Shown piece after piece: positions 673 through 57,990 of a stretch of DNA of 64,000 nucleotides. The position numbers and the translations under genes were made by a program. Under the pieces are notes generated by a model, which worked only from the letters and a program-made list of their open reading frames with translations, did no database searches and was not told the origin of the DNA. Origin of the DNA: Candidatus Falkowbacteria bacterium (lineage in GTDB: Bacteria > Patescibacteriota > Patescibacteriia > CAIXNZ01); assembly GCA_963774955.1 (NCBI GenBank), contig CAVZGV010000004.1:3522-67521 (forward strand), written 5' to 3'. The stretch's first letter is position 1. Each line of letters starts with the position of its first letter.

Positions 673-1986
673 TTGATTATGAAACAACTATCCAGACGCG
701 CAACGATGATCGTTAGCTCAAGCCTGGCGATTTCAATACTTGCAGCAGCCTGTACCATTAGCTTTAAACCTGCCGAAATAACGATTGATGTTCAACCAAC
801 GGCTGTAGCAGAAATGGCAACACCTGCTACCGAAGCCATGTCAGCCGAAGCCCCGGCCATGCATCATGAAATGGTGATGAGTGCAGCCATGTTACGAGCC
901 ACACTCGACACACTCTTTGGCGAACATGTGCTGCTGGCAGCCGACGCCACCGATGCCGCATTGCACGGTCGTGAAGCAGAATTCACAGCCGCCGCCGATG
1001 CACTCGACCACAATTCGCAGGATATCGCAGCAGCCATCGAACTGGTCTATGGCAAGGATGCAGGCGACGCCTTTTTACCCTTATGGCGCAAGCACATCAG
1101 CTTTTTTGTAAACTATACGATTGCTGTTTCTGCCAAAGATGAAACCGGCCGCCAAAAAGCATTGGATGATTTGACAGGCTATGCCGAAGATTTTGGGGCT
1201 TTTCTGGCTTCTGCCAACCCGAATCTGACGGTCGAAGCAGTCAAGGGCTTGCTCGGACCGCATGTTGGCACGCTGACCGCGGTCATAGATGCCCAGGCAA
1301 TCGACGACTATCCAACTGCTTTCATGCACCAACGCGAAGCTTACATGCACATGGATATGATTGCCAAAGCGCTTGCCGGTGCCATTGGGCAACAATTCCC
1401 CGATGGATTCACTGGTGCAGCCGATTCAATGGGCGCAAATCTGCGTTCGACACTGAATCTGCTGTTGGCAGAGCATGTGAGTCTGGCGGCAACGACCACC
1501 AGCGCCGCCATCAACGGTCGCAGTGACGAGATGACAGCCGCCGCCGATGCGCTGGATAACAACAGTGTTGACCTCTCACTATCAATCGGAGCCGTCTATG
1601 GCAAAGATGCTGGCGACGCCTTCCTGCCACTGTGGCGCAAGCACATCGGTTTCTTTGTGGATTACACTACAGCAGTTGCCACCAAAGATGAGGCAGCCCG
1701 CATGAAGGCAGTGGATGACCTCACAGGCTATGCCGAAGATTTCGGTGCTTTCCTGGCTTCTGCCAACCCGAATCTGACAGTTGAAGCCGTGAAGGGCTTG
1801 CTTGGACCCCATGTTGGCACACTGACCGCAGTCATTGATGCACAAGGTGCTGACAACCACGAAATGATCTATACGCATCTTCGTGAAGCCTATGCGCACA
1901 TGAGCATGATCGCCAACCCACTCAGCGATGCTATCATCGCTCAGTTCCCCGATATCTTCGGCGATGAAGAAGCCATGATGCGGTGA
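673..1986 (+). CDS. Secreted tandem-repeat protein with two copies of a roughly 185-aa His/Met-rich domain (uncharacterised)
   Basis: Signal-peptide-like N-terminus. Two internal copies of GEHVLLAA...FLPLWRKHIGFFVDYT...YAEDFGAFLASANPNLTVEAVKGLLGPHVGTLTAVIDAQ...HM.MIA, each preceded by a Met-rich stretch. Confidence 0.6.
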   Translation: MIMKQLSRRATMIVSSSLAISILAAACTISFKPAEITIDVQPTAVAEMATPATEAMSAEAPAMHHEMVMSAAMLRATLDTLFGEHVLLAADATDAALHGREAEFTAAADALDHNSQDIAAAIELVYGKDAGDAFLPLWRKHISFFVNYTIAVSAKDETGRQKALDDLTGYAEDFGAFLASANPNLTVEAVKGLLGPHVGTLTAVIDAQAIDDYPTAFMHQREAYMHMDMIAKALAGAIGQQFPDGFTGAADSMGANLRSTLNLLLAEHVSLAATTTSAAINGRSDEMTAAADALDNNSVDLSLSIGAVYGKDAGDAFLPLWRKHIGFFVDYTTAVATKDEAARMKAVDDLTGYAEDFGAFLASANPNLTVEAVKGLLGPHVGTLTAVIDAQGADNHEMIYTHLREAYAHMSMIANPLSDAIIAQFPDIFGDEEAMMR

Positions 1987-1987
1987 G

Positions 1988-3500
1988 ATGGATCACAGCA
2001 TGGAAATGACCGGCACGATGGAAATGACTGATACCATGGAAATGACTGACACAGAAGAAATGTCAGGCGCGATGGAAATGGAAGAAGCACGAAGTGTCGC
2101 AGTGATGAGTGCAGGTCAGCTCCGTTCGACACTCGATGGGCTCTTTGGCGAACACGTACTGCTTGCAGCCAATGCCACCGACGCTGCTTTGCACGGTCGC
2201 AGGATGAGTTCGCAGCCGCAGCCGCAGCGCTTGACCACAATTCCGAAGACATTGCTGGCGCTATCACATTGGTCTACGGTGCAGAAGCAGGCGATGCCTT
2301 CCTGCCATTGTGGCGCAAGCACATCGGTTTCTTTGTGGATTACACCAATGCAGTCGCTACCAAAGATGAAGCAGCCCGCAGCAAGGCAACGGATGATCTC
2401 ACAGCCTATGCCGAAGATTTCGGTGCTTTCCTGGCTTCTGCCAACCCGAATCTGACAGTTGAAGCAGTCAAAAGCTTGCTCGGACCCATGTTGGCACACT
2501 GACAGTAGTCATCGATGCCCAGGCAATCGACGATTACCCAGCCGCATTTATGCACCTACGTGAAGCATATATGCACATGGACATGATCGCAGCCGGTCTG
2601 GCAGGTGCAATTGCTCAACAGTTTCCCGAAACATTCCCTGGCATGGCAGATTCTTCTGCGGCAGGGTTACGCTCCGCACTCAATCAGCTTCTGGCCGAGC
2701 ATGTTGCGTTGGCAGCCAATGCCACCAACGCCGCTTTGGGTGGACGCAACGATGAATTCGCGCCGCAGCCGACGCACTCGACGCCAACAGCGTTGACCTG
2801 TCGAAAGCTATTGCTTCGGTCTATGGTGCAGAAGCAGAGCAATGCCCTTCCTGCCCTTGTGGCGCAAGCACATCGGTTTCTTTGTCGATTACACCAATGC
2901 AGTCGCTACCAAAGATGAAGCAGCCCGCACCAAGGCAACGGATGATCTCACAGGTTATGCCGAAGATTTCGGTGCTTTCCTGGCTTCTGCTAACCCGAAT
3001 CTGACAGTTGAAGCAGTGAAGGGCTTGCTTGGACCCCATGTTGGCACATTGACCGCAGTCATCGATGCACAAGGTGCCAGCAACCCCGAAATGGCATACA
3101 TGCACTTCGTGAAGCCTATGCACACATGAGCATGATCGCCAATCCGCTCAGCGACGCCATTATCGCTCAGTTTCCCGACATCTTTGGCACTGAAGACGCA
3201 GCCATGATGCAGGATATGGGTCAGATGGACGAGATGAGTGATATGGGCGAGATGCACGAAGACGTAGTCATGTCGGCTGCAATGTTGCGCTCCACACTCG
3301 ACCTCTTGTTGGGTGAACACGTAGCCCTGGCAGCCAGCGCAACCGACGCCGCCTTTACACGGTCGGGGTGACGAGTTTGCAGCCGCAGCCAATGCACTGG
3401 ATGGCAACTCGGTTGACATTGCAGGTGCCATTGGACTGGTCTACGGTACAGACGCAGGCGATGCCTTTCTGCCACTGTGGCGCAAGCACATCGGTTTCTT
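1988..3500 (+). pseudogene. Frameshifted copies of the His/Met-rich repeat domain (a disrupted gene or sequencing/assembly errors in a repeat)
   Basis: ORF fragments 1988..2455, 2269..2502, 2550..2918, 2842..3129 and 3126..3371 all encode pieces of the same domain in different frames. Confidence 0.5.
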
Positions 3501-3501
3501 T

Positions 3502-4551
3502 GTGGATTACACAAACGCAGTTGCCCAAGGGGACGAAGCTGCTCGCCAGAAAGCATTGAATGATCTTGATGCCTATGCCGAAGACTTTGGTGCCTTTATC
3601 GAATCTGCCAATCCAAATCTGCCCAAAGCCGCAGTTGCCGAACTTCTCCGCCAACATGTCGCCACCTTGACCACGGTCATTGATGCACAGGGCGTAAAGA
3701 CAGCTCAGGAATCAGGCGACCAGATGAATGCCTATCCAACATTGCGCACAGCCTTTGCGCACATGGATATGGAAGCGAGCGCACTGGCAAGTGGTATTGC
3801 CACCCAGTTCCCGGATCGTTTCCCGGGTATGGTTGACACCCCAGCAGCCGGGTTACGTTCGGCACTGACACAATTGCTCTCGGAGCATGCACTACTCCTG
3901 ATCAAGACCATCGATGCCGCAACTCATTCCCGCACCATCGAGTACGAAGCAGCCTTTGCTGCACTCGACGCCAATAGCATTGATCTTTCGAAAGCGGTTG
4001 GCTCGGTCTATGGCGACGACGCAGGAACAGCCTTCCTGGGTTTGTGGCGTAAGCATATCGGTTTCTTTGTCGACTATGCGCTTGCACTGATTGACAACAA
4101 CGATGTAGCCAAGGAAAAAGCCGCCAACGAACTGACTGGATATGCACAGGACTTTGCAGCCTTCCTTAATTCTGCAAACCCTGACCTACCAGCCGATGTT
4201 GTGGCAGGATCGGTGACCGAACATGCCAAGACCACACTGGCAGCAATCGATGCCACGGTCATGGATGACCCAGCAGCGTATTATGCAGCATTGCGCACCG
4301 CCTACAGCCACATGAGCATGATCGCCAACGGACTTAGCGATGCCATCATCGCTCAATTTCCCGACATCTTTGGTGTTGAAGAGCCAGTCGCAATGGCAGG
4401 TCATGACATGGCAGAAATGACAGCCAGTGAAGAAATGACTGACACCATGGAAATGACCGGTACGATGGAAATGTCAGGCACGATGGAAATGACCGATACC
4501 ATGGCAATGACTGACACGATGACTGACACGATGAGTGACAGAGATGACTGA
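3502..4551 (+). CDS. His/Met-rich repeat-domain protein copy with C-terminal Met-rich tail (MEMTDTMEMTGTMEMSGTM...)
   Basis: 349-aa ORF homologous to the units in 673..1986. The MxM/MEMT tail resembles Cu(I)-binding Met motifs. Confidence 0.55.
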   Translation: MDYTNAVAQGDEAARQKALNDLDAYAEDFGAFIESANPNLPKAAVAELLRQHVATLTTVIDAQGVKTAQESGDQMNAYPTLRTAFAHMDMEASALASGIATQFPDRFPGMVDTPAAGLRSALTQLLSEHALLLIKTIDAATHSRTIEYEAAFAALDANSIDLSKAVGSVYGDDAGTAFLGLWRKHIGFFVDYALALIDNNDVAKEKAANELTGYAQDFAAFLNSANPDLPADVVAGSVTEHAKTTLAAIDATVMDDPAAYYAALRTAYSHMSMIANGLSDAIIAQFPDIFGVEEPVAMAGHDMAEMTASEEMTDTMEMTGTMEMSGTMEMTDTMAMTDTMTDTMSDRDD

Positions 4552-4822
4552 AGAGATGACAGTCGAAGTAGCCATCTCGACCTTCAACTTCAAGCCAGGT
4601 CGAATTGAAGTGCCAGTCGGCACCACCGTTGTTTGGACCAACAATGATGCCATCAATCATACAGTAACCTCGGGTGAACCGGGCGCACCAGATGGCATCT
4701 TTGATTCCGGCAACTTTAATCAGGGCGAACAGTTCTCGGTTACCTTTACAGAAGCGGGTGAATATCCATACTTCTGTAACCGCCACAATGGCATGCGCGG
4801 CGTAATCGTTGTCACACAGTAA
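4535..4822 (+). CDS. Cupredoxin (plastocyanin/amicyanin-like type-1 copper) domain, possibly the C-terminal domain of the upstream repeat protein
   Basis: HTVTSGE ... YPYFCNRHNGMRG gives His...Cys-x2-His-x2-Met type-1 Cu ligands. The Met-rich linker MTEMTEEMT continues across the frame change from ORF 3502..4551, suggesting a frameshifted fusion. Confidence 0.75.
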   Translation: MTEMTEEMTVEVAISTFNFKPGRIEVPVGTTVVWTNNDAINHTVTSGEPGAPDGIFDSGNFNQGEQFSVTFTEAGEYPYFCNRHNGMRGVIVVTQ

Positions 4823-5752: not shown

Positions 5753-6556
5753 ATGAAAACCAGACACGCACTTATCACATTTCTATTTTTAATGATTGCC
5801 ATGGGTAGCACAATCGGCGCCAATAGTGTTGGTGGTCATGCCGCAACGGTGACGCCGACTGCCACAGCAACCCGAATCCGCCATGTCACAATCAAGCCAC
5901 GTGCGACAGCCACACCCGCTTTCACTGCCACGGCAACTGTAACGGCTACTACAACTGTAATAGTGCCCTCGGCGACAGCCACGCCAGTTTCTGGCTTGGG
6001 TGGTTCTATTGAAGCCACGGTTCAAGCCTATATCGACCAAACCCGAACCGTAACGGGCAGCCAGTCGCTCTCCGCCGCTGTGGTGGCAACCAATGCACAG
6101 CCGATTCGCCTGGTCATTCCATCCTTAAAGGTGGACACGCTGATTGAAACTGTAGGGCGCGATAAAGATGGTGCGATGGACATTCCGAGCAAGGTGGAAG
6201 ATGTGGCATGGTATGGATTGGGAACGGCACCGGGCGAAGTCGGCAACGCAGTGATCGCCGGCCATCTCGACCTGGTGGATGGCTCGCCTGCCGTCTTCTG
6301 GAATATCGGCAAGTTGAAAGTCGGCGATGAAGTGATTGTCTATGATGCCGACAACGTGGCGTATCATTTTCAAGTCACGGGCAATCAACGCTACCAATTT
6401 GATGGCGCACCGGTCGAGGATATCTTTGGCTTTGCGTTGAAGAGTCAGCTCAATTTGATCACCTGCGCCGGGACGTCGAATCGCAACAGTCGCAACTATT
6501 CGAATCGGCTGGTCGTTTACACTGAATTGGTAAAGACAGTTCAACCGAAAGAGTAA
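5753..6556 (+). CDS. Sortase-family transpeptidase
   Basis: N-terminal TM, Thr/Ala-rich linker, conserved sortase His (AGHLD), LITCAG catalytic Cys motif and a downstream Arg. Confidence 0.8.
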   Translation: MKTRHALITFLFLMIAMGSTIGANSVGGHAATVTPTATATRIRHVTIKPRATATPAFTATATVTATTTVIVPSATATPVSGLGGSIEATVQAYIDQTRTVTGSQSLSAAVVATNAQPIRLVIPSLKVDTLIETVGRDKDGAMDIPSKVEDVAWYGLGTAPGEVGNAVIAGHLDLVDGSPAVFWNIGKLKVGDEVIVYDADNVAYHFQVTGNQRYQFDGAPVEDIFGFALKSQLNLITCAGTSNRNSRNYSNRLVVYTELVKTVQPKE

Positions 6557-14148: not shown

Positions 14149-14270
14149 TGGCGGAGAGGGAGGGATTTGTCCGCCAAAGGCGGATCCGCCCTTGGGGGAA
14201 ACCCCCGACCCCTTTTACAGGACTCCTGTTTTCAAGACAGGCGCCTTAAGCCGCTCGGCCACCTCTCCGC
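14149..14270 (-). tRNA. tRNA-Ser(TGA)-like gene of aberrant length (about 122 nt) with extra palindromic sequence between variable arm and T arm
   Basis: Acceptor GCGGAGA/TCTCCGC, D-arm TGGCCGAGCGG, anticodon stem-loop CCTGT-CTTGAAA-ACAGG. It lacks a canonical GTTCGAATC T-loop and contains GGCGGATCCGCC and GGGGGTTTCCCCC palindromes. Confidence 0.5.
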
Positions 14271-18955: not shown

Positions 18956-19019
18956 ACAAAATTAATAATGCGTTTGTCTTGACATAAAGTTCGAATTTTG
19001 ATAGCGTTGGAAATATCAA

Positions 19020-19640
19020 TGAGGACGAACTTCCGGATGTCTTTATAGACGAAAATCGGCTTGTCCTCAAAATTTTTGGCGAGACGACATTGGGACTGTT
19101 TAGCTAACGTGCAGATGTGTGTCTCGCCCCTTTTTCTTTGCCGCTGGCTTTGAGCTTAGGGCTCTGGGCTAAGAGCTTCAGAGCAAAGGGGACGACGAGG
19201 TTGTTGATTTATTAAATTTAATAATGACCTGTCCCCTAAAAATTTTGCAGACGAGCAGTCAGTTGTTGTTTGAAAACAACGAGAAGAAGGTTGTCCGCAA
19301 AATTGGGTGAGACGCTAGAAATGGTGCTATATCATAGCGTCGTAGAAGTTGTCTCACCCTACTTTAAAATTTAGTGATTGGTGAATTGGTTAAGAAGTTA
19401 GTTTAGTGAAATGTGTTTGGTGAAAGTTAATACACTCAACACCATGGCCCAAACTAACCTCCTTACCTTTCCACTATTCACAAAAGCAATATTTTGCGGA
19501 CGAAGAAGTTCCTGTCTTAATTAAGACGTTTTGGGGCTTGTCCGTAAAAAAAACAGGGTAAGACGAGTGCGGCTCTGTTTCTAAACTTACAAAGACATGT
19601 CTTACCCAAAAAAAACCCCACGCAAAAGCGAGGGGATTTT
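19020..19640 (-). repeat. Inverted-orientation copy (about 2.5 units) of the A/B/C/D hairpin-box array family
   Basis: Reverse complements of boxes are readable in order: tgtcctcaaaatttttggcgagacga (A), tgtctcgcccctttttctttg (D), caaaggggacgacga (C), tgtcccctaaaaattttgcagacga (B), plus the long variant sub-element. Confidence 0.8.
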
Positions 19641-19655
19641 TATTTGCTGAAAATT

Positions 19656-28393: not shown

Positions 28394-29470
28394 TTAATAT
28401 CTTAATAGTCTTTTTTTCTTTTGGCCAATTACTAAGCCTTCCCCAAGGTTCAATGCCCTGGATATCATAAAAAAAATATTTTCATTGGTGTTTATTGATT
28501 CAATCTTAATGTCCGGATGGTAATTTTGCCATACCCGGAAAATTTCATCGGCAAACGCCTGTCCGACTGTTTTAACTTTTGCAAAATCTAAAATAATAAT
28601 TTTAAATTTGTCTAAACCAGTCAGAATGCGCCTGGCCTGCGAACGTGACAAATATATTTCTCCCATTTTATATAATTTTACGGCAACTTTAGTTCTGTCA
28701 AATTCAAAAGATTCGCCTGAAAATCGGTTAAAAATTTGCCTAAGCGATTTTTTAGATTTTAGTAAAATGGAAAAAAATATCCTCGTTCCCGCCTTGGGTC
28801 TGATATCATGGATGAAAAAATCATCCACTAAATTATTAAAAAATAATTTTTTATCCGATCCTTCAATCGCTAGATTGTCGGCTGCCTTAGAAGTAAAAAA
28901 AATCCCCTCGCCTGAATGTCTTTCGGGATTGGTTGTCTGTTTGCCTTTTAATAAATCCTGAATTGCTTCCAGCGCGTTTTTTAGCTTCCTTTTTCTCATA
29001 ATATTATTAAAAATACCCACCCCATAATCTAAAACTTCAAAGCTCAAAATGTCCGCAGATCTACTCATTTTAATTTTTATTATTTTTGACTGCGAATGTT
29101 CAATGGCATTATTAAGCATTTCAGTAAACGCGTAACTTACGATATTATTGATATTTTCAGGCAAGTTGAAAAAGATGCCGCTTTCTTTCTTAATCTGATC
29201 CAAAATAACGTCTTCTGCCAAATTAATATTTTTTAGAGTCCTATTTACGCTTAATAATACACCCTTGGCCCTTATAACATCGACTTTATCCGCTAACACG
29301 TAGAATGATTGCCGAGCCTTGCCAATTAAGACAATTTTACCCTCATTGCGCAATTCTTGTAAAAATCTGTTGATATATGCACGACTAAACCTAGTCACCT
29401 TAATCACATCAGCAACCTTTACCTGGTTTTTTTCTTTAATTGTATCTAATATTAGCGCTTTAATATCCAT
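28394..29470 (-). CDS. HTH-domain plus GHKL/HATPase-like domain regulator (anti-sigma-factor-kinase-like)
   Basis: N-terminal winged-HTH-like segment. NAIEHSQ...LDYGVGIF resembles an ATP-binding Bergerat-fold N/G boxes. Confidence 0.45.
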   Translation of the reverse strand: MDIKALILDTIKEKNQVKVADVIKVTRFSRAYINRFLQELRNEGKIVLIGKARQSFYVLADKVDVIRAKGVLLSVNRTLKNINLAEDVILDQIKKESGIFFNLPENINNIVSYAFTEMLNNAIEHSQSKIIKIKMSRSADILSFEVLDYGVGIFNNIMRKRKLKNALEAIQDLLKGKQTTNPERHSGEGIFFTSKAADNLAIEGSDKKLFFNNLVDDFFIHDIRPKAGTRIFFSILLKSKKSLRQIFNRFSGESFEFDRTKVAVKLYKMGEIYLSRSQARRILTGLDKFKIIILDFAKVKTVGQAFADEIFRVWQNYHPDIKIESINTNENIFFMISRALNLGEGLVIGQKKKRLLRY

Positions 29471-29478
29471 ATGTTTAG

Positions 29479-29533
29479 TTTACGATTAGTTGACGATTAG
29501 TTGACGATTAGTTGACGATTAGTTGACGATTTC
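29479..29533. repeat. Five tandem copies of the 11-mer TTGACGATTAG immediately upstream of the regulator gene start
   Basis: tttacgattag ttgacgattag x3 ttgacgatttc, followed by an inverted partial copy atcgtcaac at about 29555. Confidence 0.8.
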
Positions 29534-29639
29534 ATTATATCATATATTATAAATATCGTCAACCCAGCCTTTAAAAATAAAACCTGCCATTCGAAAACAG
29601 CAGGTTTTGAGCGAAACAATGCTCTGCTCGTCAATTCAG

Positions 29640-51290: not shown

Positions 51291-52463
51291 TTACTTTTCA
51301 GGCTTAAACACAATGGTTTTGCCTGAACCGAATCTTGACTCCAGCACAACCCGCGGCGGATGATGACCAGTCACAATCCTTCCGCACCGCTGAGCATAAA
51401 GATTAAAGCGTTCTGCTTCTGCTTCAAATCTCGGCTGATCTTCAAGATCAATAACTGCCAGCATGCCCTGGCCGCCATTCCAGGTTTTATAGCATTCTTC
51501 CTCTGACATATCTCTCCACTGAGCGCATTTGGCCATGATTTGAGGCGGTTCAAACAGGCTGTCCAAAACTGCGGAAAAACCCCGCGGGAAAAGAATGTCC
51601 TTGGCCAGTTTGGATTCAATGGCTCCTCCTGATAAATGCACCAGCAAGTGCACTTTTATAACCGGCTTAAAACCCGGGGGATTAGACCAGCCATTGAGAT
51701 AAGTTAAAAACCGGTCATACAAAATTGAGGGGACCGCACAGGCCATAATGTCCAACTCTGCCAAAGGATTAGCCCACCAGGCATCGCCATATTTAAGCTT
51801 CAGAGCTTTACGCACTGAACTGATGCCATTAGCCCGGAATCCATGTTCCTGCAAGGCCATGATGATCTGACCGGGCTCCAAAGTCTTTCCCAGAATCATT
51901 TTTTGACGATGATAAAGTCCGGTCATCACCCCTGCCCAGTTGAATTTAAATCTGGCCTCAGGATTTTCAGAGCCGACACATACACCCAGCTCAGCTGTTT
52001 CACCCGTTATAATCACCACCTGTGATTCAGCGGCAGCCTGACGAGCGCTCATTATAACTTCCCTGGCGGCCTTATTTGTAGGTGAACCTTTTTCACCCAA
52101 AGTACTGGTGTCCAGCACACTGGCAAACACCAGCGGAATACCGCCCCAACGGGAAATGTCGCTGGCCGTCATGGCAAAAACTTCATGAGCGGCATGATGA
52201 TAAGCGCGGGCCGCATCAATTAAAACAACTTTAGTACCTGGGCCGTCAGCAGCTTTTGTTTCCATGCAACCATTGGGAACCTTTTTAAAAGTGTATCCCC
52301 GCGGGCCGCGAAAATTACCGGCTGACATGTCCAAAACTTTCACCTGAGGAGAAAATTTATAAGTCTGCCTGCAAATTTCTCCTGCAAAAGCTGAAAAATC
52401 ATCACCTTCTTCAATATTGACCCCATCCTGTCTGTACTTGTCTTCCTTTCGCCCCTTAACCAT
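51291..52463 (-). CDS. AIR-synthase-related (PurM-like) protein
   Basis: PurM-family N- and C-domain-like segments (DGPGTKVVL ... VIITGETAELG). Start moved to MVKGRKED (52463), which has a gaaaggag RBS. The longer ORF would overlap the conserved promoter/operator. Confidence 0.55.
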   Translation of the reverse strand: MVKGRKEDKYRQDGVNIEEGDDFSAFAGEICRQTYKFSPQVKVLDMSAGNFRGPRGYTFKKVPNGCMETKAADGPGTKVVLIDAARAYHHAAHEVFAMTASDISRWGGIPLVFASVLDTSTLGEKGSPTNKAAREVIMSARQAAAESQVVIITGETAELGVCVGSENPEARFKFNWAGVMTGLYHRQKMILGKTLEPGQIIMALQEHGFRANGISSVRKALKLKYGDAWWANPLAELDIMACAVPSILYDRFLTYLNGWSNPPGFKPVIKVHLLVHLSGGAIESKLAKDILFPRGFSAVLDSLFEPPQIMAKCAQWRDMSEEECYKTWNGGQGMLAVIDLEDQPRFEAEAERFNLYAQRCGRIVTGHHPPRVVLESRFGSGKTIVFKPEK

Positions 52464-52534
52464 CTTTCTTTTCTCCTTTCTTATTTTGAAATGTACAATC
52501 TTGTTTTTTCTGATTTTCTTTACCTTATTAAATT

Positions 52535-52552
52535 GGTTGATGTTTGTCAACC
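52535..52552. promoter_or_regulatory. Palindromic operator-like site GGTTGA-N6-TCAACC within a 44-bp block conserved upstream of two minus-strand genes
   Basis: ctttaccttattaaattggttgatgtttgtcaaccgatattta at 52521-52564 is repeated nearly identically at 53521-53563. Contains TTGACA on the minus strand. Confidence 0.5.
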
Positions 52553-52559
52553 GATATTT

Positions 52560-52730
52560 ACTGATTCCGACTTTATTTTATGTGAAAGGTGTAACGGTAA
52601 AGATGTTAGTTAAGTGAATAGTGATAAGTGTAAGGTAATTATAAAAACTTAACACATAATACTTAATCCTAAACTTACATCCTAACCTTTTGACTATTCA
52701 CTAAAAAGAAAAACCCCGCATCTTACGACA
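52560..52730. repeat. Copy of the roughly 110-nt long variant sub-element (ggtgtaacggtaaagatg...cctaacc...ctattcac) of the hairpin-box family
   Basis: Shares ggtaaagatg, taagtgt and cctaacc blocks and an outer gtgaatag/ctattcac-type stem with copies at 31530, 31770, 34140, 34935, 53590 and 19380 (reversed). Confidence 0.7.
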
Positions 52731-52742
52731 CGGAGTTTGTTA

Positions 52743-53477
52743 TCAACGTGAACATTCCCTTAGAATATTCACCCTGACATTGAATTTATTAAGATACTGA
52801 CTTAACCGCTGCAGATTAACCTCAGTGGCAAAGAGTATCTGAAATCCAATTTTCTCCGGATCATCGGGTTTGGCATTGGGCAGGACAGCAATAATTTCAC
52901 CGTACTTTTTCAGCCAATCCGTAACCTTTTTATACCCGCTGTCAAAATTATTCATGTTGAACAAAACTCCGACGATTACCAGGCTGATATCTTTGGCCTG
53001 CAGATTTTCTTCCAAACGATGTTCTTCATACTCCCCCAAAGTCTTGCGAATATCCGGCGGAATAATATCTTTGACCGCGTTATCAGCGACCTCAACCACC
53101 TCAGCTCTACCATCAGCAAGATTATTCAGGTTAAGAATAATCTTGTCCGGAGAAACTTCATTGGGGGAATCGGAGTGGATCATTGCCTCAAGATTTTCAA
53201 TAGCTTCAAAAAGAGCATCCAGGATGTTTTGAGCGATGGGAAGCTGACCCAACCGCATTCTGGACAGAAGATTTTCCATAGCATGCGCCAGCTTGCTCAT
53301 GCCCTGAAAACCAAAAACGCCACAAGAACCCTTGAGTGTATGAGCAGCGCGGAAAATACCGTTAAGTATATCCGGATCAACTTTTCCTTTGGCTTTTAAA
53401 GAATTTTCATACTTCAAAAGCCCCTGGCTCATTGCGTCTATGAGTTCTTCCGCCTCGCCGGCAAAATCTTTATCCAT
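52743..53477 (-). CDS. HPt (histidine phosphotransfer) domain protein
   Basis: N-terminal four-helix HPt signature AAHTLKGSCGVFG. RBS ggaggaggt upstream of MDKDF. Confidence 0.55.
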   Translation of the reverse strand: MDKDFAGEAEELIDAMSQGLLKYENSLKAKGKVDPDILNGIFRAAHTLKGSCGVFGFQGMSKLAHAMENLLSRMRLGQLPIAQNILDALFEAIENLEAMIHSDSPNEVSPDKIILNLNNLADGRAEVVEVADNAVKDIIPPDIRKTLGEYEEHRLEENLQAKDISLVIVGVLFNMNNFDSGYKKVTDWLKKYGEIIAVLPNAKPDDPEKIGFQILFATEVNLQRLSQYLNKFNVRVNILRECSR

Positions 53478-53537
53478 GACTACCTCCTCCCTTTTTAATG
53501 TACAGATTATATGGATTTTTCTTTACCTTATTAAATT

Positions 53538-53555
53538 GGTTGGTGTTTGTCAACC
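53538..53555. promoter_or_regulatory. Second copy of the palindromic operator-like site (GGTTGG-N6-TCAACC)
   Basis: Within the conserved block upstream of the HPt gene. Confidence 0.5.
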
Positions 53556-53559
53556 GATA

Positions 53560-53710
53560 TTTAAAAATTTCGACTTTATTATAAGTTAAAGGTGTAAAGG
53601 TAAAGATGTTAGTTAAGTAAATAGTGTTAAGTGTTAGCTAATATAAAACACTTTTCACTTATAACCTAAGACCAGACTCACATCCTAACCTTTTCACTCT
53701 TCACCAAAGA
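53560..53710. repeat. Copy of the long variant sub-element of the hairpin-box family
   Basis: aaaggtgtaaaggtaaagatgttagttaagtaaatagtgttaagtgt...catcctaacc. Confidence 0.7.
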
Positions 53711-53741
53711 AAAACCCCCTGCACCGTACGGTACAGGGGGC
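53707..53741 (-). terminator. Rho-independent terminator of purL
   Basis: On the minus strand: ccccctgtaccgtacggtgcaggggg followed by tttttctttgg. Confidence 0.8.
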
Positions 53742-53785
53742 TGGTTGCGAAATTTTACTTGTGTTCCATTTTATCCGCCAAAGCT

Positions 53786-56700
53786 TTATGCGGAGGCGGA
53801 ACACCACTGATAGGCGTTTTGGAACAATTTGAGCCAGGGTGAGGCCAGCAGTATCTGCCAGTCTTCCGGCAAATACGGCCACTGCCACAAATGGAAACAT
53901 CTTTCAGGGTGAGGCATCATAGCCAGGTGACGGCCAGTCGGATCGCACAAGGCAGTTATTCCAAGAGGCGAACCATTGGGATTGAACGGATAAATATCCG
54001 TCATCAATCCCTGGTCGTCAACGAAACGGATCGGTGCCAGTTCCTTTTGCAGAATCTGATCCATCACCTTACTGTCAGGTGAATGGAACCGACCTTCACC
54101 GTGAGCCACCCAGATCCCTAAAGTTGATCCGGACATGCCCTGCAACATAATTGCCGGACTCTCCAGAATGGTTACGGTTGAGAACCTGGATTCAAACCGC
54201 CCCGAAGTGTTGCGGATGAATCTCGGTTGGATCTTATCAGCCAGGTTATCAAACGGCACCCAGCCAAGCAAGGCCATGAGCTGACAGCCGTTGCAGATGC
54301 CGAGGCTGAAAGTATCCTTGCGGTTCTTGAACTTTTTGAACTGGTTGCGCACCCGCTTATTGAAGCGAATCACGCCAGCCCACCCCTTGCCGGCATCGAG
54401 CACGTCAGCGTAAGAAAATCCGCCGACAAAGACAATGCCGACAAACTCGTCCAGAGTAACCCGACCGCTGATCAAGTCAGACATGATCACGTCATGGACT
54501 TCAAAGCCCGCGAGATGAAACGCGGCTCTCATTTCCGCATCGCCATTGGATCCTTCGGAACGAAGAATGGCGACTTTGGGTTTTCTTTGGGCTTCCAAAA
54601 TTTTGGCCGAAGTCGGCTTGGGCATGAAGCTGAGGTTATACTGCGGACCTTGGCGGTCAAAATTAACCTCGCGCTCCTGTTCCACGCACTCCGGATTGGC
54701 CTGCAAACGATCGATCTGGTAACTGGTTTCTTCCCAGACATCGCGCAGGGTAGGCATTGCTGACCAGAAAACTTCCTGACCATGATTGGTCAATTTGATT
54801 TCCTGTTCTTGGCTGGTCCAGCCAAGAACGTGGCAGCAGTCCGTCAATCCGTGACACCGCAAGATGCCGCGGATTTTCTTTTCGTCTTCCGGCAGGTACT
54901 CGATCACCAGACCCAATTCTTCATTGAAGAAATAATTGAGCCAGTTTATTTTTTTGCCCTGCTGTAAATCGAGGTCCAAACCGCAATTTCCGGCAAAGGC
55001 CATTTCCAGTAAACAAGTGATCAAGCCGCCGTCTGACCGGTCATGTCCGGACAGTGTCAGACCTTCTCTGATTAATTGCTGCATGGCTTTGAAAGCCTGC
55101 TTGAGCAGTTGAGGATCTTCCACGTCTGGAACTTCATTACCGACCTGTTCATAAACCTGAGCCAAAGCAGAACCGCCTAAGCGCTGTTTGCCCTCGGCCA
55201 AATCAATAAGCATGAGTTTGCTTTGACCGGGTTTTTTGAGATCAGGAGTGACTTTCAGCCTGATATCAGGCATGGCCGCATAAGCAGACATGACCAGCGT
55301 ACCTGGTGCCTTGACTGTTTCGCTGAAACCATCAGGATGATTGACTTTGGCTGCCATGCTCAGACTGTCTTTGCCACCGTCAATAGCCGGACCGTCCAGA
55401 TCTTCCAGGAATTTTCCCAAGGCCAGGACTGCTTCATAGAGCCTTGCGCCTTCATCATCGACTTTGGCCGCCCACATCCAGTTGGCTGAGAACCTGACAT
55501 GCTCAAACTGGGTAATGACTGCCCAGCAGAGATTGGTAAAGGCTTCAGCTGCTGACATGCGCGCCATGGCCGCGTTATTGACCAGGCCGATGATGGGCCG
55601 TTCGCCAATAGAAGTGGCAGCGCCAGTGAATTGAAAGTGGCTATTGGCTACTGCCGCATAGTCTGACAAAGTCAGCTGTAAAGGACCGACGCATTGCTGC
55701 TGGGCAATCAAGCCCGTAACACTACGATCGACCTTGCTGGTGAGAAAACGTTTGGACCCGACAGACAAAAGCCGCAGCACTTTTTCCAGTGCTTGGCCGA
55801 TGGTCATGTCTTCAGGCAGTATCAAAGGCAGAAGTCTGTCTTTGACGCGCGTGAACTCAAATTTCTTCTGGGGCACTTTGCCGAAAATCTGTTCCAGAGA
55901 AAGATTTACCGGCTTGGCGCCCTTTTTGTCTTTGACCACGATCATGCCGTCACCGGTAATTTTACCGATGATCGCATAAGGGCATTCTTCGCGCTCGCAG
56001 ATGGAAATGAACTGTTTCAAGCGCGACTTCTTGATGACGATAAAGTAGCGTTCCTGAGATTCATTGCCCCAGATTTCCATCTTGGACAGAGTCGGATCGC
56101 CCAGTGGCAGTTTGGCCATGTTGATGAGAGCGCCATACGGATTGACGCCTTCGGGAATGGCATTGCAATTGCCGCCTGCACCCAGGTCGTGGATGATCAG
56201 AATCGGAGATTGGTCGCCCATGGCAATGCAGGCATTGATGACACGGGCTGTTTTCTGTTCCATTTCCGCGTCGCCGCGCTGCACCGCATTGAAATCGAGC
56301 TTGGCCGTGCTGGCGCCCTGAATCATGCTGGATGCCGCGCCGCCGCCCATGCCGATGCGATAATTGGGACCGCCCAGAATGATAACGATATCACCCTTTT
56401 GCGGTTCCAGTTTTTTGACGTGACGGCTGTCCATCTGGCCAATTCCGCCGGTGAACATGATGGGCTTGAACCAGGAACGACGTTGACCCGCCACCATAAA
56501 TTCGTTGGAGCGGGAAAAGCCGAGAATCACTGGCTCACCGATTTCATTGCCGTAGCGTGATGCGCCGTTAGACGCTTCAATGAGAATTTCCAGCGGTGTG
56601 GCCAGGTTATCTACCAACGGCCAATCAGGATGTTCCCATTCCAGGTCATAGCCGGGAATACGCAAACCGCCGACGCAGTATGCAGCCGTGCCCGCAATCA

Positions 56701-57688
56701 TCATACCGCCGATACCAACCGCATACACGTCACGAATGCGACCGCCAGTGCCTGTTTCTGCTCCGGGGAATGGAGCAACTCCGCTGGGGAAATTGTGCGT
56801 TTCCGCCGTAAACAGAATGTGGTAATGCAGTCTCTGTCCTTCCCACTTGCAGGACTGGCCAGCCAAAGTGGGCAAGATGGTCCAGACATCCCAGCCTTCA
56901 ATCGTGGAGGAATTGTCATGGAAAGCAATGATGCTGTTGCCTGGTTTTTTCTTCCAGGCAGCCGTAACAATTTCCCACAAGGTGAGCGGCATGGATTTAC
57001 CGTCAATGTACATCTTGCCTTTCCAGAAATGATGGCGGCAATGTTCCGAGCCGGCTTGCGCCAACTGGAACAGTTCCACATCAGTAGGATTCCGTTTTAA
57101 AACGTCGCAGAACAAATGAAGGTAGTAATCAAAGTCCTGCGAATCCATGGCCAAGCCCAGTTCTTTGTTGGCTTTTTCCAAGGCCGCCCTGCCCTGTTCC
57201 AGAAGCGGGATGATTTTCATGGGCGCAGGCTTAAGGCCGGTGGAAAAAGTTGTCAGAGGCTTGGCATAGGGCATTTCGGTCATACGGTCATAAACCGACT
57301 CAATGAATCGAGCCGGAACTTCCTGTCCATTCAGGAAATACCGCCGGGAAACTTCCAGGCGGGTAACCTTGGTCAGGCCACAGGCGTGGCAAATAGCGAC
57401 AGCGTTGGTGGACTGAGGCGTGGTCCGATTCATGGTCGGACCGACTTCAATCACGTTCGTGCCAAGGAAACTTTTAGGCCTGGTTTTTTCAGGTTCAAAT
57501 GTTTCCGCCAGCAACCAGCGCAGCTTTTTCAGCTCGGCCGGTGTCATGGGCGAACTGGTCTCCACATTGAAACACAGTTCAGTTTTCAGACCCTGCAAAC
57601 CAAACTGGGCCTGCAAAGCACTGACTTTGTCCTCGGTTACACCCGGTTGCCGGTAAAAATGTAACACCTTACCCTCTTGTGCTTTCAT
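53786..57688 (-). CDS. purL: Phosphoribosylformylglycinamidine synthase, single-chain large form
   Basis: 1300-aa intact ORF with N-terminal PurS-like region, central AIRS domains and C-terminal glutamine amidotransferase (GICNGCQ catalytic Cys). Confidence 0.95.
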   Translation of the reverse strand: MKAQEGKVLHFYRQPGVTEDKVSALQAQFGLQGLKTELCFNVETSSPMTPAELKKLRWLLAETFEPEKTRPKSFLGTNVIEVGPTMNRTTPQSTNAVAICHACGLTKVTRLEVSRRYFLNGQEVPARFIESVYDRMTEMPYAKPLTTFSTGLKPAPMKIIPLLEQGRAALEKANKELGLAMDSQDFDYYLHLFCDVLKRNPTDVELFQLAQAGSEHCRHHFWKGKMYIDGKSMPLTLWEIVTAAWKKKPGNSIIAFHDNSSTIEGWDVWTILPTLAGQSCKWEGQRLHYHILFTAETHNFPSGVAPFPGAETGTGGRIRDVYAVGIGGMMIAGTAAYCVGGLRIPGYDLEWEHPDWPLVDNLATPLEILIEASNGASRYGNEIGEPVILGFSRSNEFMVAGQRRSWFKPIMFTGGIGQMDSRHVKKLEPQKGDIVIILGGPNYRIGMGGGAASSMIQGASTAKLDFNAVQRGDAEMEQKTARVINACIAMGDQSPILIIHDLGAGGNCNAIPEGVNPYGALINMAKLPLGDPTLSKMEIWGNESQERYFIVIKKSRLKQFISICEREECPYAIIGKITGDGMIVVKDKKGAKPVNLSLEQIFGKVPQKKFEFTRVKDRLLPLILPEDMTIGQALEKVLRLLSVGSKRFLTSKVDRSVTGLIAQQQCVGPLQLTLSDYAAVANSHFQFTGAATSIGERPIIGLVNNAAMARMSAAEAFTNLCWAVITQFEHVRFSANWMWAAKVDDEGARLYEAVLALGKFLEDLDGPAIDGGKDSLSMAAKVNHPDGFSETVKAPGTLVMSAYAAMPDIRLKVTPDLKKPGQSKLMLIDLAEGKQRLGGSALAQVYEQVGNEVPDVEDPQLLKQAFKAMQQLIREGLTLSGHDRSDGGLITCLLEMAFAGNCGLDLDLQQGKKINWLNYFFNEELGLVIEYLPEDEKKIRGILRCHGLTDCCHVLGWTSQEQEIKLTNHGQEVFWSAMPTLRDVWEETSYQIDRLQANPECVEQEREVNFDRQGPQYNLSFMPKPTSAKILEAQRKPKVAILRSEGSNGDAEMRAAFHLAGFEVHDVIMSDLISGRVTLDEFVGIVFVGGFSYADVLDAGKGWAGVIRFNKRVRNQFKKFKNRKDTFSLGICNGCQLMALLGWVPFDNLADKIQPRFIRNTSGRFESRFSTVTILESPAIMLQGMSGSTLGIWVAHGEGRFHSPDSKVMDQILQKELAPIRFVDDQGLMTDIYPFNPNGSPLGITALCDPTGRHLAMMPHPERCFHLWQWPYLPEDWQILLASPWLKLFQNAYQWCSASA

Positions 57689-57990
57689 CTTAGCCTCCTT
57701 TTACCCCCCGAAGCTTTAACTCAGGAGGGCATTGTTTTGTGATTTTGTTTTTATCCTTAAAACCCTAATTTTCAAAGTTCAAATATATAAAAAATAAAAA
57801 ATTGTCCCCCTTGAACAATTTTCTTATTTGCCTTAAATTTAGCATTTTGGCGATATTTGTCAAACGGTTTTCGCTATCGACAAACGTAACGTTTACCGAG
57901 ACAGAGAAACGTAAAATAAAATAATTCCCATGGGTACTTCAAAAATATCTCAATATTTGCTAAGATTATAATATAATTAATTCTCAATTT

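Follow-up and report, generated by a model that had tools for sequence, protein, structure and literature searches.

We have analysed a 64-kb stretch of DNA (hereafter the window) on contig CAVZGV010000004.1 of a Candidatus Falkowbacteria bacterium, together with ~60 kb of related contigs searched alongside, with respect to a repeat of 105–135 nucleotides (nt) that we call E. E is mainly a non-guide linker module of stem-loop TIGR arrays, the guide-RNA arrays on both sides of the gene tasR, and is also located at two or more mRNA boundaries, where it is accompanied by a duplicated 44-bp block upstream of an HPt-domain protein gene (HPt) and a PurM-like gene. We consider it probable that E is a lineage-specific palindromic repeat of the REP/ERIC/Correia kind which, judging from its placement and strand bias, acts as an RNA processing or insulating hairpin, and that the block is a duplicated promoter. 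The initial annotation of this DNA had proposed a covarying element joined to a palindromic operator and a link of the repeat family to purine-biosynthesis regulation.

As that annotation had counted, exactly seven copies of E are present in the window. An nhmmer profile built from the seven copies recovers those seven alone (E-values 1e-28 to 1e-35), a degenerate E pattern gives 7 matches vs. 0.00 expected, and a covariance model finds no further copy. Six copies (starting at ~31534, 31776, 34148, 34938, 52582 and 53585) are co-oriented and the one at 19368–19488 is reversed; relative to local transcription, every copy has the same orientation. The seven copies are spread over four loci. Five are non-guide hairpin linkers within the TIGR arrays, and two (E1 and E2) lie outside the arrays. 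Six more copies were found in related contigs: three in L009, a relative whose TasR is 98% identical to that of the window, two in L010 (Candidatus Parcubacteria GCA_026395755.1, TasR 81% identical), and one, again outside arrays, in L016, a relative whose HPt protein is 78% identical. The copy at 34141..34258 has an ortholog in L010 (897–1019), whereas that at 31769..31912 is on an array segment absent from L009. E sits right after hairpin-plus-U-tract structures: at genes a true terminator precedes it, and in arrays the preceding guide unit, of stem class H1, ends in GCCCCCUUUU. Within arrays, E substitutes for an H3+H4 segment between H2 and H1 guide units. The element is built of reiterated GTGAAWAG-like motifs and contains GGTAAAGATG, which resembles the −10 context TAAGGTAAAG.

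No counterpart of E emerged from the collections searched. Rfam 15 yields no family for E, for the 44-bp block or for the arrays at gathering or permissive thresholds; only tRNAs reach the gathering score, and the best permissive match of E, a plant miRNA-precursor hairpin (20 bits vs. a gathering score of 75), is at chance level. Exact-pattern scans gave one match in GTDB genomes and seven in JGI metagenomes, all of them chance matches that do not fit the E profile, with a pattern so strict that the true L016 copy fails it, so that these negatives carry little weight; a stricter pattern had no match in viral contigs. The literature search returned nothing relevant on palindromic repeats in Patescibacteria. 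Three other identities of E were considered and rejected. As a coding element, GGTAAAGATG would offer a plus-strand Shine-Dalgarno sequence and an ATG; the frames, however, end after 4–29 codons and are not conserved. As an intrinsic terminator, which the initial annotation had listed among its options, E is AT-rich (28–40% GC) and is followed by no U tract, and the real terminators are immediately upstream of it; the insulator and cis-RNA options of that list remain plausible. An outward promoter at the E 3′ end (TTTACC-18-TAATAT) has 9 of 12 consensus matches and is not above background.

The repeat family around E is a large chromosomal stem-loop TIGR-Tas locus of a candidate phyla radiation (CPR)-type bacterium, an identity that had not been recognised. 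It comprises ~45 dual-spacer units in three arrays: ~39 belong to the arrays on either side of tasR, and 6 to a separate mini array of opposite orientation. On the tasR strand, the units have the layout stem..GAC-GA-N9-U-G-hairpin-C-GA-N9-U-GUC..stem, so that each 9-nt variable spacer is flanked by C-GA before and U-G after. With hairpins anchored on the stem motifs alone, 39 of 67 loops begin with GA, and spacer A is followed by U-G in 48–49 of 67. The spacers are nearly all unique, and the stems are of three conserved classes, H1 (GGGCGAGAC), H2 (UUUUGCGGAC) and H3 (GGGGAC). Both a Tas gene and dual-spacer units, the marks of a stem-loop TIGR array, are present at this locus. The promoters and terminators on the array strand are predictions.

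The Tas gene corresponds to an open reading frame (ORF; 33990..32440) that interrupts the otherwise ORF-free repeat region 29590–35190. It has no Pfam hit, matches NCBIfam TIGR_Tas_endo (NF052498) with 73 bits, and also matches the TaTasR structure 9MTY. This score is below the cut-off of 100 because of frameshifts: frame analysis and comparison with the intact L009 gene reveal three 1-nt indels, at ~33907, 33084 and 32953. The intact homologs of 98% and 81% identity score 113 and 121 bits and also hit PDB 9MTY. The apparent disruption of tasR means either that it is a pseudogene whose arrays have survived or that there are local assembly errors; the indels contrast with the neighbouring 3.9-kb purL, which is intact. 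Relatives of TasR are almost all proteins of Patescibacteria/Parcubacteria, often labelled IS110-like transposase.

Comparison with L009 indicates that the arrays are in flux. Multi-unit insertions and deletions distinguish the window arrays from those of this 98% relative, and the arrays evolve via recombination between stems. A perfect 71-nt duplication (30102–30172 and 31454–31524) includes an identical guide unit with both spacers the same. Self-targeting is not apparent: with composite 18-nt targets from the ~45 spacer pairs and up to 4 mismatches, 71 matches were found vs. 49–74 for shuffled spacers; there was no spacer-pair match with 2 or fewer mismatches, and nothing in the window, the pur promoters included, is targeted. 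We also noticed other conserved non-guide linkers, a CCAGAAY...RTTCTGG hairpin (31975–32002, 34320–34345 and 34815–34870), also found in L014, and the H4 hairpins (CCCCUUUUCUYUG...CAGRGAAAAGGGG; e.g., 30895–30955 and 32115–32175), the loops of which are GGCWWATGGC repeats. L014 is a more distant TIGR locus, with a TasR of 52% identity; it shares the box architecture and the linker hairpins, and has another AT-rich long hairpin of 130 nt in the place of E. This AT-rich long-hairpin repeat (~130 nt) occurs in the TIGR arrays of L014 and L015 (L014 8760–8905 and 9232–9375), and similar sequence lies between pur-gene terminators and promoters in L018, a distant relative with a pur cluster (4428–4494 and 6027–6114), which parallels the distribution of E. 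Both sequences being AT-rich, this similarity is weak evidence.

Every copy of E folds into one long imperfect hairpin (−22 to −52 kcal/mol), with z-scores against shuffles from −1.5 to −6.2 that vary with copy and strand. In an alignment of 12 copies, a 28-pair consensus is 91% paired, vs. 31–53% in slid registers. The inner stems on which the annotated covariation had been based (TTTGGTGT/ACACCAAA and AGTTAAGT/ACTTAACA) are present, but they do not occupy homologous columns, and minimum-energy folds pair them otherwise; they compete with other pairings from the GTGAAWAG-like reiterations. The pairing also differs between strands. On the sense strand, that of tasR and the guide units, the pair cells hold 35 G·U vs. 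10 A·C, and five pair columns are dominated by G·U and none by A·C; one pair runs U-A, U·G and C-G across copies. The sense fold is the more stable one in 7 of 10 copies, and the array copies have the strongest sense-strand stability. The G·U excess weakly favors an RNA hairpin on the transcribed strand. Since the copies are related by descent, this strand bias is suggestive, not proof, of a hairpin at the RNA level.

E1 and E2 are located in the minus-strand cluster of purL, HPt and the PurM-like gene. The observation that a common block precedes both of the latter genes, downstream of a real purL, holds. In both intergenic gaps, an intrinsic terminator comes first on the minus strand; E follows, then a few AT-rich nucleotides, then the 44-bp block, and last a short 5′ untranslated region (5′UTR) with a Shine-Dalgarno sequence. 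The resulting cassettes (52514–52727 and 53517–53730) are a 214-nt direct repeat with 82% identity, and their blocks, P2 ahead of the PurM-like gene and P1 ahead of HPt, are paralogs. The terminators abutting E are predicted to function on the minus strand only; in the HPt terminator, G·U pairs are possible on this strand only.

Several lines of evidence point to the block as a promoter. TTGACA-17-TAAGGT lies 46–53 nt upstream of the start codons of HPt and the PurM-like gene. In the window, TTGACA-N16-18-TANNNT is found 16 times vs. 1.9 expected, an eight-fold enrichment, mostly ahead of genes, and the TAAGGT version is found four times vs. 0.03 expected, the sites being those of the array leader, tasR, HPt and the PurM-like gene; this version is also upstream of tasR in L014. 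TTGACA is the general −35 box of the organism. The orthologous HPt promoter in L016 is TTGACA-17-TAAGCT, with the −35, spacing, −10 and 5′UTR conserved. The palindrome GGTTGA-N6-TCAACC behaves differently. TTGACA is in both blocks as annotated, but the palindrome, which overlaps the −35 box, is perfect in P2 only and imperfect in P1 (GGTTGG-N6-TCAACC), and both of its half-sites are changed in L016. GGTTG-N8-CAACC is restricted in the window to the two duplicated blocks; with one mismatch, the palindrome occurs 4 times in the window vs. 2.1 expected, which is no enrichment, and it has no match in 18 related loci. From its hexamers, spacing, downstream gene and ortholog, the block is predicted to be an ordinary sigma-70-type promoter of HPt, and not an operator. 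Thus, of the promoter/operator module first described, the duplicated promoter with an attached hairpin element stands and the operator does not. No candidate plus-strand promoter for an antisense E RNA was found in the block.

The comparison with L016 bears on the history of the cassettes. There, the order is terminator, promoter, HPt, terminator, E (1509–1644, orthologous to E2) and a convergent DUF5698 gene; the syntenic site (1473–1698) lacks the PurM-like gene and a second promoter, and upstream of the HPt promoter E is absent. Where E1 is absent, the flanking sequence differs as well. E thus persists in L016 after the HPt terminator with no promoter downstream. The HPt promoter and the E copy after HPt, being present in L016, are therefore ancestral. 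In the window lineage, the E-plus-promoter unit appears to have been duplicated or converted into the present cassettes, and the copy is predicted to drive the PurM-like gene now; this gene was either gained recently in the window lineage or lost in L016. The orthologous E copies are 65% identical, comparable to HPt third-codon positions (64%), and the one in L016 folds into a near-perfect hairpin (−51.7 kcal/mol). A near-perfect hairpin despite such divergence could be explained by either compensatory maintenance or replacement by other copies.

From the constant orientation, the placement after hairpin-U-tracts, the sense-strand G·U bias and the persistence in L016, we infer a processing or insulating role for E. 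E would act as RNA on the sense strand, in the precursor of the guide RNAs (pre-tigRNA) or in terminator read-through, where ~30–45 of its base pairs would make up a G·U-rich duplex. Such a duplex may be a site for a double-strand-specific RNase or a barrier to 3′ exonucleases, and the hairpin would thereby separate adjacent transcription units. E may have spread by duplication or recombination together with its flanks, and would have no purine-specific role.

A number of observations weigh against this explanation. Column shuffles give the same 91% pairing, because the paired columns are conserved; a both-sided change is found in only 1 of 336 pair cells among the 12 copies, and the covariation score (0.088) does not exceed the shuffled mean (0.111), so that the covariation claimed at first has no statistical support. 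The strand asymmetry is uneven: the mini-array copy folds better antisense, two copies are equal, and the two pur-locus copies have no G·U bias. Many copies share descent, and their orientations and G·U counts are thus not independent. Transcription of the pur-locus copies would need terminator read-through. In addition, three of the four TAAGGT promoters have E 25–105 nt upstream, which could hint at a role at the DNA level. No target-site duplication was seen at any window copy when the flanks were read for direct repeats. Finally, in the 64 kb of the genome and ~60 kb of related contigs that were searched, the term dispersed refers to three copies outside arrays, at two loci.

The alternative to which we assign a modest chance is that E belongs to the stem-loop TIGR system as a dedicated accessory RNA module, a cis-acting scaffold or cleavage site required for maturation of the pre-tigRNA, with the pur copies stray or decaying and without function. 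The preponderance of array copies (five of seven), their sense-strand stability, and the lack of G·U bias in the pur copies fit this alternative, as do the conserved positions at which E flanks tasR in L009 and L010. Flanking sequence is also reported to improve the processing of stem-loop tigRNAs. Against this alternative, the copy after the HPt terminator is retained at the orthologous L016 site, where it is a near-perfect hairpin, the covariance model finds no E in the short flanks of the TasR relatives of 71%, 67% and 52% identity, and tasR itself is apparently disrupted in this genome. Only a slim chance is given to E acting as DNA, either as a MITE (miniature inverted-repeat transposable element) that inserts near hairpins and terminators or as a protein-binding platform or upstream element modulating TAAGGT-type promoters. 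E does have terminal inverted repeats (GTGAATAG/CTATTCAC) and a MITE-like size, it is present or absent among relatives (E1 is missing upstream of HPt in L016), its orthologous copies have diverged roughly as fast as synonymous sites, and the reiterated motifs, the −10-like GGTAAAGATG and the promoters downstream of E could all be read this way. As to mobility, we found no target-site duplication, no precise empty site and no transposase linked to E; as to promoter modulation, four copies have no downstream promoter, the L016 copy faces a convergent gene, and the L016 HPt promoter is conserved without E. A G·U excess on one strand is moreover unexpected for a palindrome that works purely as DNA.

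That E and GGTTGA-N6-TCAACC form a purine-responsive promoter/operator module defining a regulon, we regard as very improbable. The cassette stands ahead of two genes of the purL/HPt/PurM-like cluster, the palindrome is over the −35 box, the classic repressor position, and in other relatives HPt orthologs neighbour pur genes. Nevertheless, the palindrome is confined to two paralogous blocks and absent from related loci, the orthologous promoter has not conserved it, and purL has another promoter and another conserved leader. The link to purine regulation is further weakened by E being mainly a TIGR-array module and by its retention in L016 without a PurM-like gene or a promoter. The reading of E as a tigRNA guide unit of unusual length is hardly credible: its slot between H2 and H1 stems is like that of a unit, and two ~10-nt internal loops flank its apical hairpin, but the loop sequences are conserved among copies and not variable, the C-GA...U-G box pattern is absent, and the single parse of E as a unit is a low-scoring artefact. 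The processing or insulating hairpin, attached to a duplicated promoter, remains the probable explanation, and neither the purine operator nor the covarying riboregulator is worth pursuing as such.

Taken together, this is a real but ordinary repeat-plus-promoter duplication in an interesting kind of locus that has already been described. For TIGR biology, what is of use is this setting, with its modular arrays and their conserved non-guide hairpins. For promoter evolution, it illustrates clearly how a promoter was copied together with a repeat so as to drive the adjacent PurM-like gene. A bolder proposal, to which we give a small chance, is that in CPR stem-loop TIGR arrays E, the H4 hairpins and the CCAGAAC hairpins are a dedicated cis module for processing and insulation. 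A host RNase specific for double strands would be recruited by this module and would cleave the precursor into sub-arrays or units; behind mRNA terminators, such as those of purL and HPt, the module would have taken on the insulation of downstream promoters. If true, this would explain how stem-loop tigRNAs are matured, a mechanism that is so far missing and for which conserved long duplex modules in the precursor are concrete candidates.

The coordinates of the features are collected in Table 1. HPt is not itself a purine enzyme. Its product is CheA-P1-like, and the gene neighbours purine-biosynthesis genes (purL, PurM-like, purN and purD) in several relatives (L017 4001–4723 and L018 3606–4337). 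The PurM-like protein scores below the cut-off of TIGR00878. The purL promoter and leader differ from those of HPt and the PurM-like gene: the leader region (57863..57689, minus strand) consists of a promoter, a hairpin (GAAAAUUGUUCAAGGGGGACAAUUUUUU; conserved hairpin at 57818..57786) with a U tract, CUUUGAAAAUU and UUAAGGA. Leaders of this type recur in L018 ahead of HPt, purD and a purN-like gene (3488–3606, 4520–4649 and 6128–6235), and the purL leader has no Rfam match. The leader hairpin is a better candidate than E or the block for a pur-specific cis signal, and the leader is a candidate for an attenuator, or for a riboswitch-like element of pur genes, in Patescibacteria. Elsewhere in the window, a four-copy iteron-like tandem of TTAGTTGACGA (29478–29525) lies at the array edge, immediately upstream of a 358-aa HATPase/DUF4325 ORF (29470..28394). 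One of four clustered tRNA matches (14152–14268, minus strand; 42.5 bits) spans 117 nt vs. the 71 positions of the model, which hints at an insertion or an intron in a tRNA gene. The region 870–4540 has in-frame internal repeats with periods of ~549–678 nt and 18-nt GAAATGAC(N) tandems, consistent with a large repetitive protein-coding gene that is unrelated to the E/TIGR family.

Table 1. Positions in the window of the TIGR-Tas locus, the pur cluster and the copies of E
Feature	Position	Strand	Remarks
Mini TIGR array, 6 units + E	18975..19645	+	predicted promoter TTGACA-17-TAGCGT 18979-19007
Stem-loop TIGR array downstream of tasR	29590..32380	-	units separated by non-guide linker hairpins
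tasR (TIGR-associated RuvC/Nop protein, CPR clade)	32440..33932	-	predicted promoter TTGACA-17-TAAGGT 34043..34015
Stem-loop TIGR array upstream of tasR	34050..35190	-	predicted leader promoter TTGACA-17-TAAGGT 35225..35197; predicted terminator 34085..34060
E in mini TIGR array	19368..19488	+	reversed like the whole mini array; sense -26.0 vs. antisense -36.1 kcal/mol
E in array downstream of tasR	31527..31645	-	sense -33.6 vs. antisense -22.4 kcal/mol
E in downstream array, with additional GC-rich mini-hairpin insertion	31769..31912	-	profile, covariance model, fold
E near 3′ end of upstream array	34141..34258	-	~100 nt upstream of tasR promoter; sense -42.1 vs. antisense -22.0 kcal/mol
E following first unit of upstream array	34931..35048	-	profile, covariance model, fold
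E2	52575..52714	-	between HPt terminator and PurM-like promoter; nhmmer E-value 9e-29; covariance model 92 bits; fold -27.5 kcal/mol, z -3.0
E1	53578..53717	-	between purL terminator and HPt promoter; nhmmer E-value 6e-28; covariance model 94 bits; fold -35.3 kcal/mol, z -3.5
PurM-like gene (AIR-synthase-related, 392 aa)	51291..52469	-	Pfam AIRS + AIRS_C; predicted to be driven by P2
Block P2, predicted PurM-like promoter	52514..52557	-	-35 TTGACA 52550..52545, 17-nt spacer, -10 TAAGGT 52527..52522
HPt intrinsic terminator (predicted)	52711..52738	-	GNRA-loop hairpin + U tract; E2 lies directly downstream
HPt-domain protein gene (244 aa)	52743..53477	-	Pfam Hpt, E-value 8e-19; predicted to be driven by P1
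Block P1, predicted HPt promoter	53517..53560	-	-35 at 53553..53548, -10 at 53530..53525
purL intrinsic terminator (predicted)	53713..53742	-	directly upstream of E1
purL (FGAR amidotransferase, 1300 aa)	57688..53786	-	intact

Several known systems can be compared with the present one. RNase III processing hairpins lie between cistrons in the phage T7 early region and in rRNA operons; E, a long imperfect duplex between transcription units, is like them, purely as an analogy. The 44-bp block resembles a sigma-70 promoter with a repressor operator in its perfect TTGACA, 17-nt spacer, TAnnnT −10 and palindrome over the −35, but differs in that the palindrome is unconserved in the ortholog and is not repeated elsewhere. 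ERIC/IRU, REP/BIME and Correia (NEMIS) elements are dispersed intergenic palindromic repeats of proteobacteria, and Correia elements supply promoters and are cut by RNase III within transcripts. E is comparable in its size of ~100–150 nt, its imperfect inverted-repeat ends and the long hairpin it would form if transcribed; several E copies are also in non-coding DNA beside terminators or promoters, and E has spread with flanking promoter sequence. Unlike E, those elements belong to another host phylum, and they have no sequence relationship to it. The promoter is beside E and not within it, neither a target-site duplication nor a transposase was found for E, and most of its known copies are in guide-RNA arrays.

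The closest system is that of the stem-loop TIGR arrays with CPR-clade TasR, which have a dual-spacer, box C/D-like architecture (Faure et al. 2025, PMC12045711; Xu et al. 2026, bioRxiv 10.64898/2026.09.09.750476). The stems of such arrays are reported as largely variable, whereas the window stems are of three conserved classes; in the text consulted, linkers are given by length only, not as long conserved hairpin modules. E differs from the published units in having no variable spacers or box motifs and in also being located outside arrays, at mRNA boundaries. In other respects the likeness is close: the palindromic stems of the window arrays enclose two 9-nt variable spacers with an inner hairpin between them, the spacers are preceded by C-GA and followed by U-G, resembling boxes C and D, arrays are on both sides of tasR, and the host is a CPR bacterium. 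The window arrays belong to the published stem-loop TIGR class.

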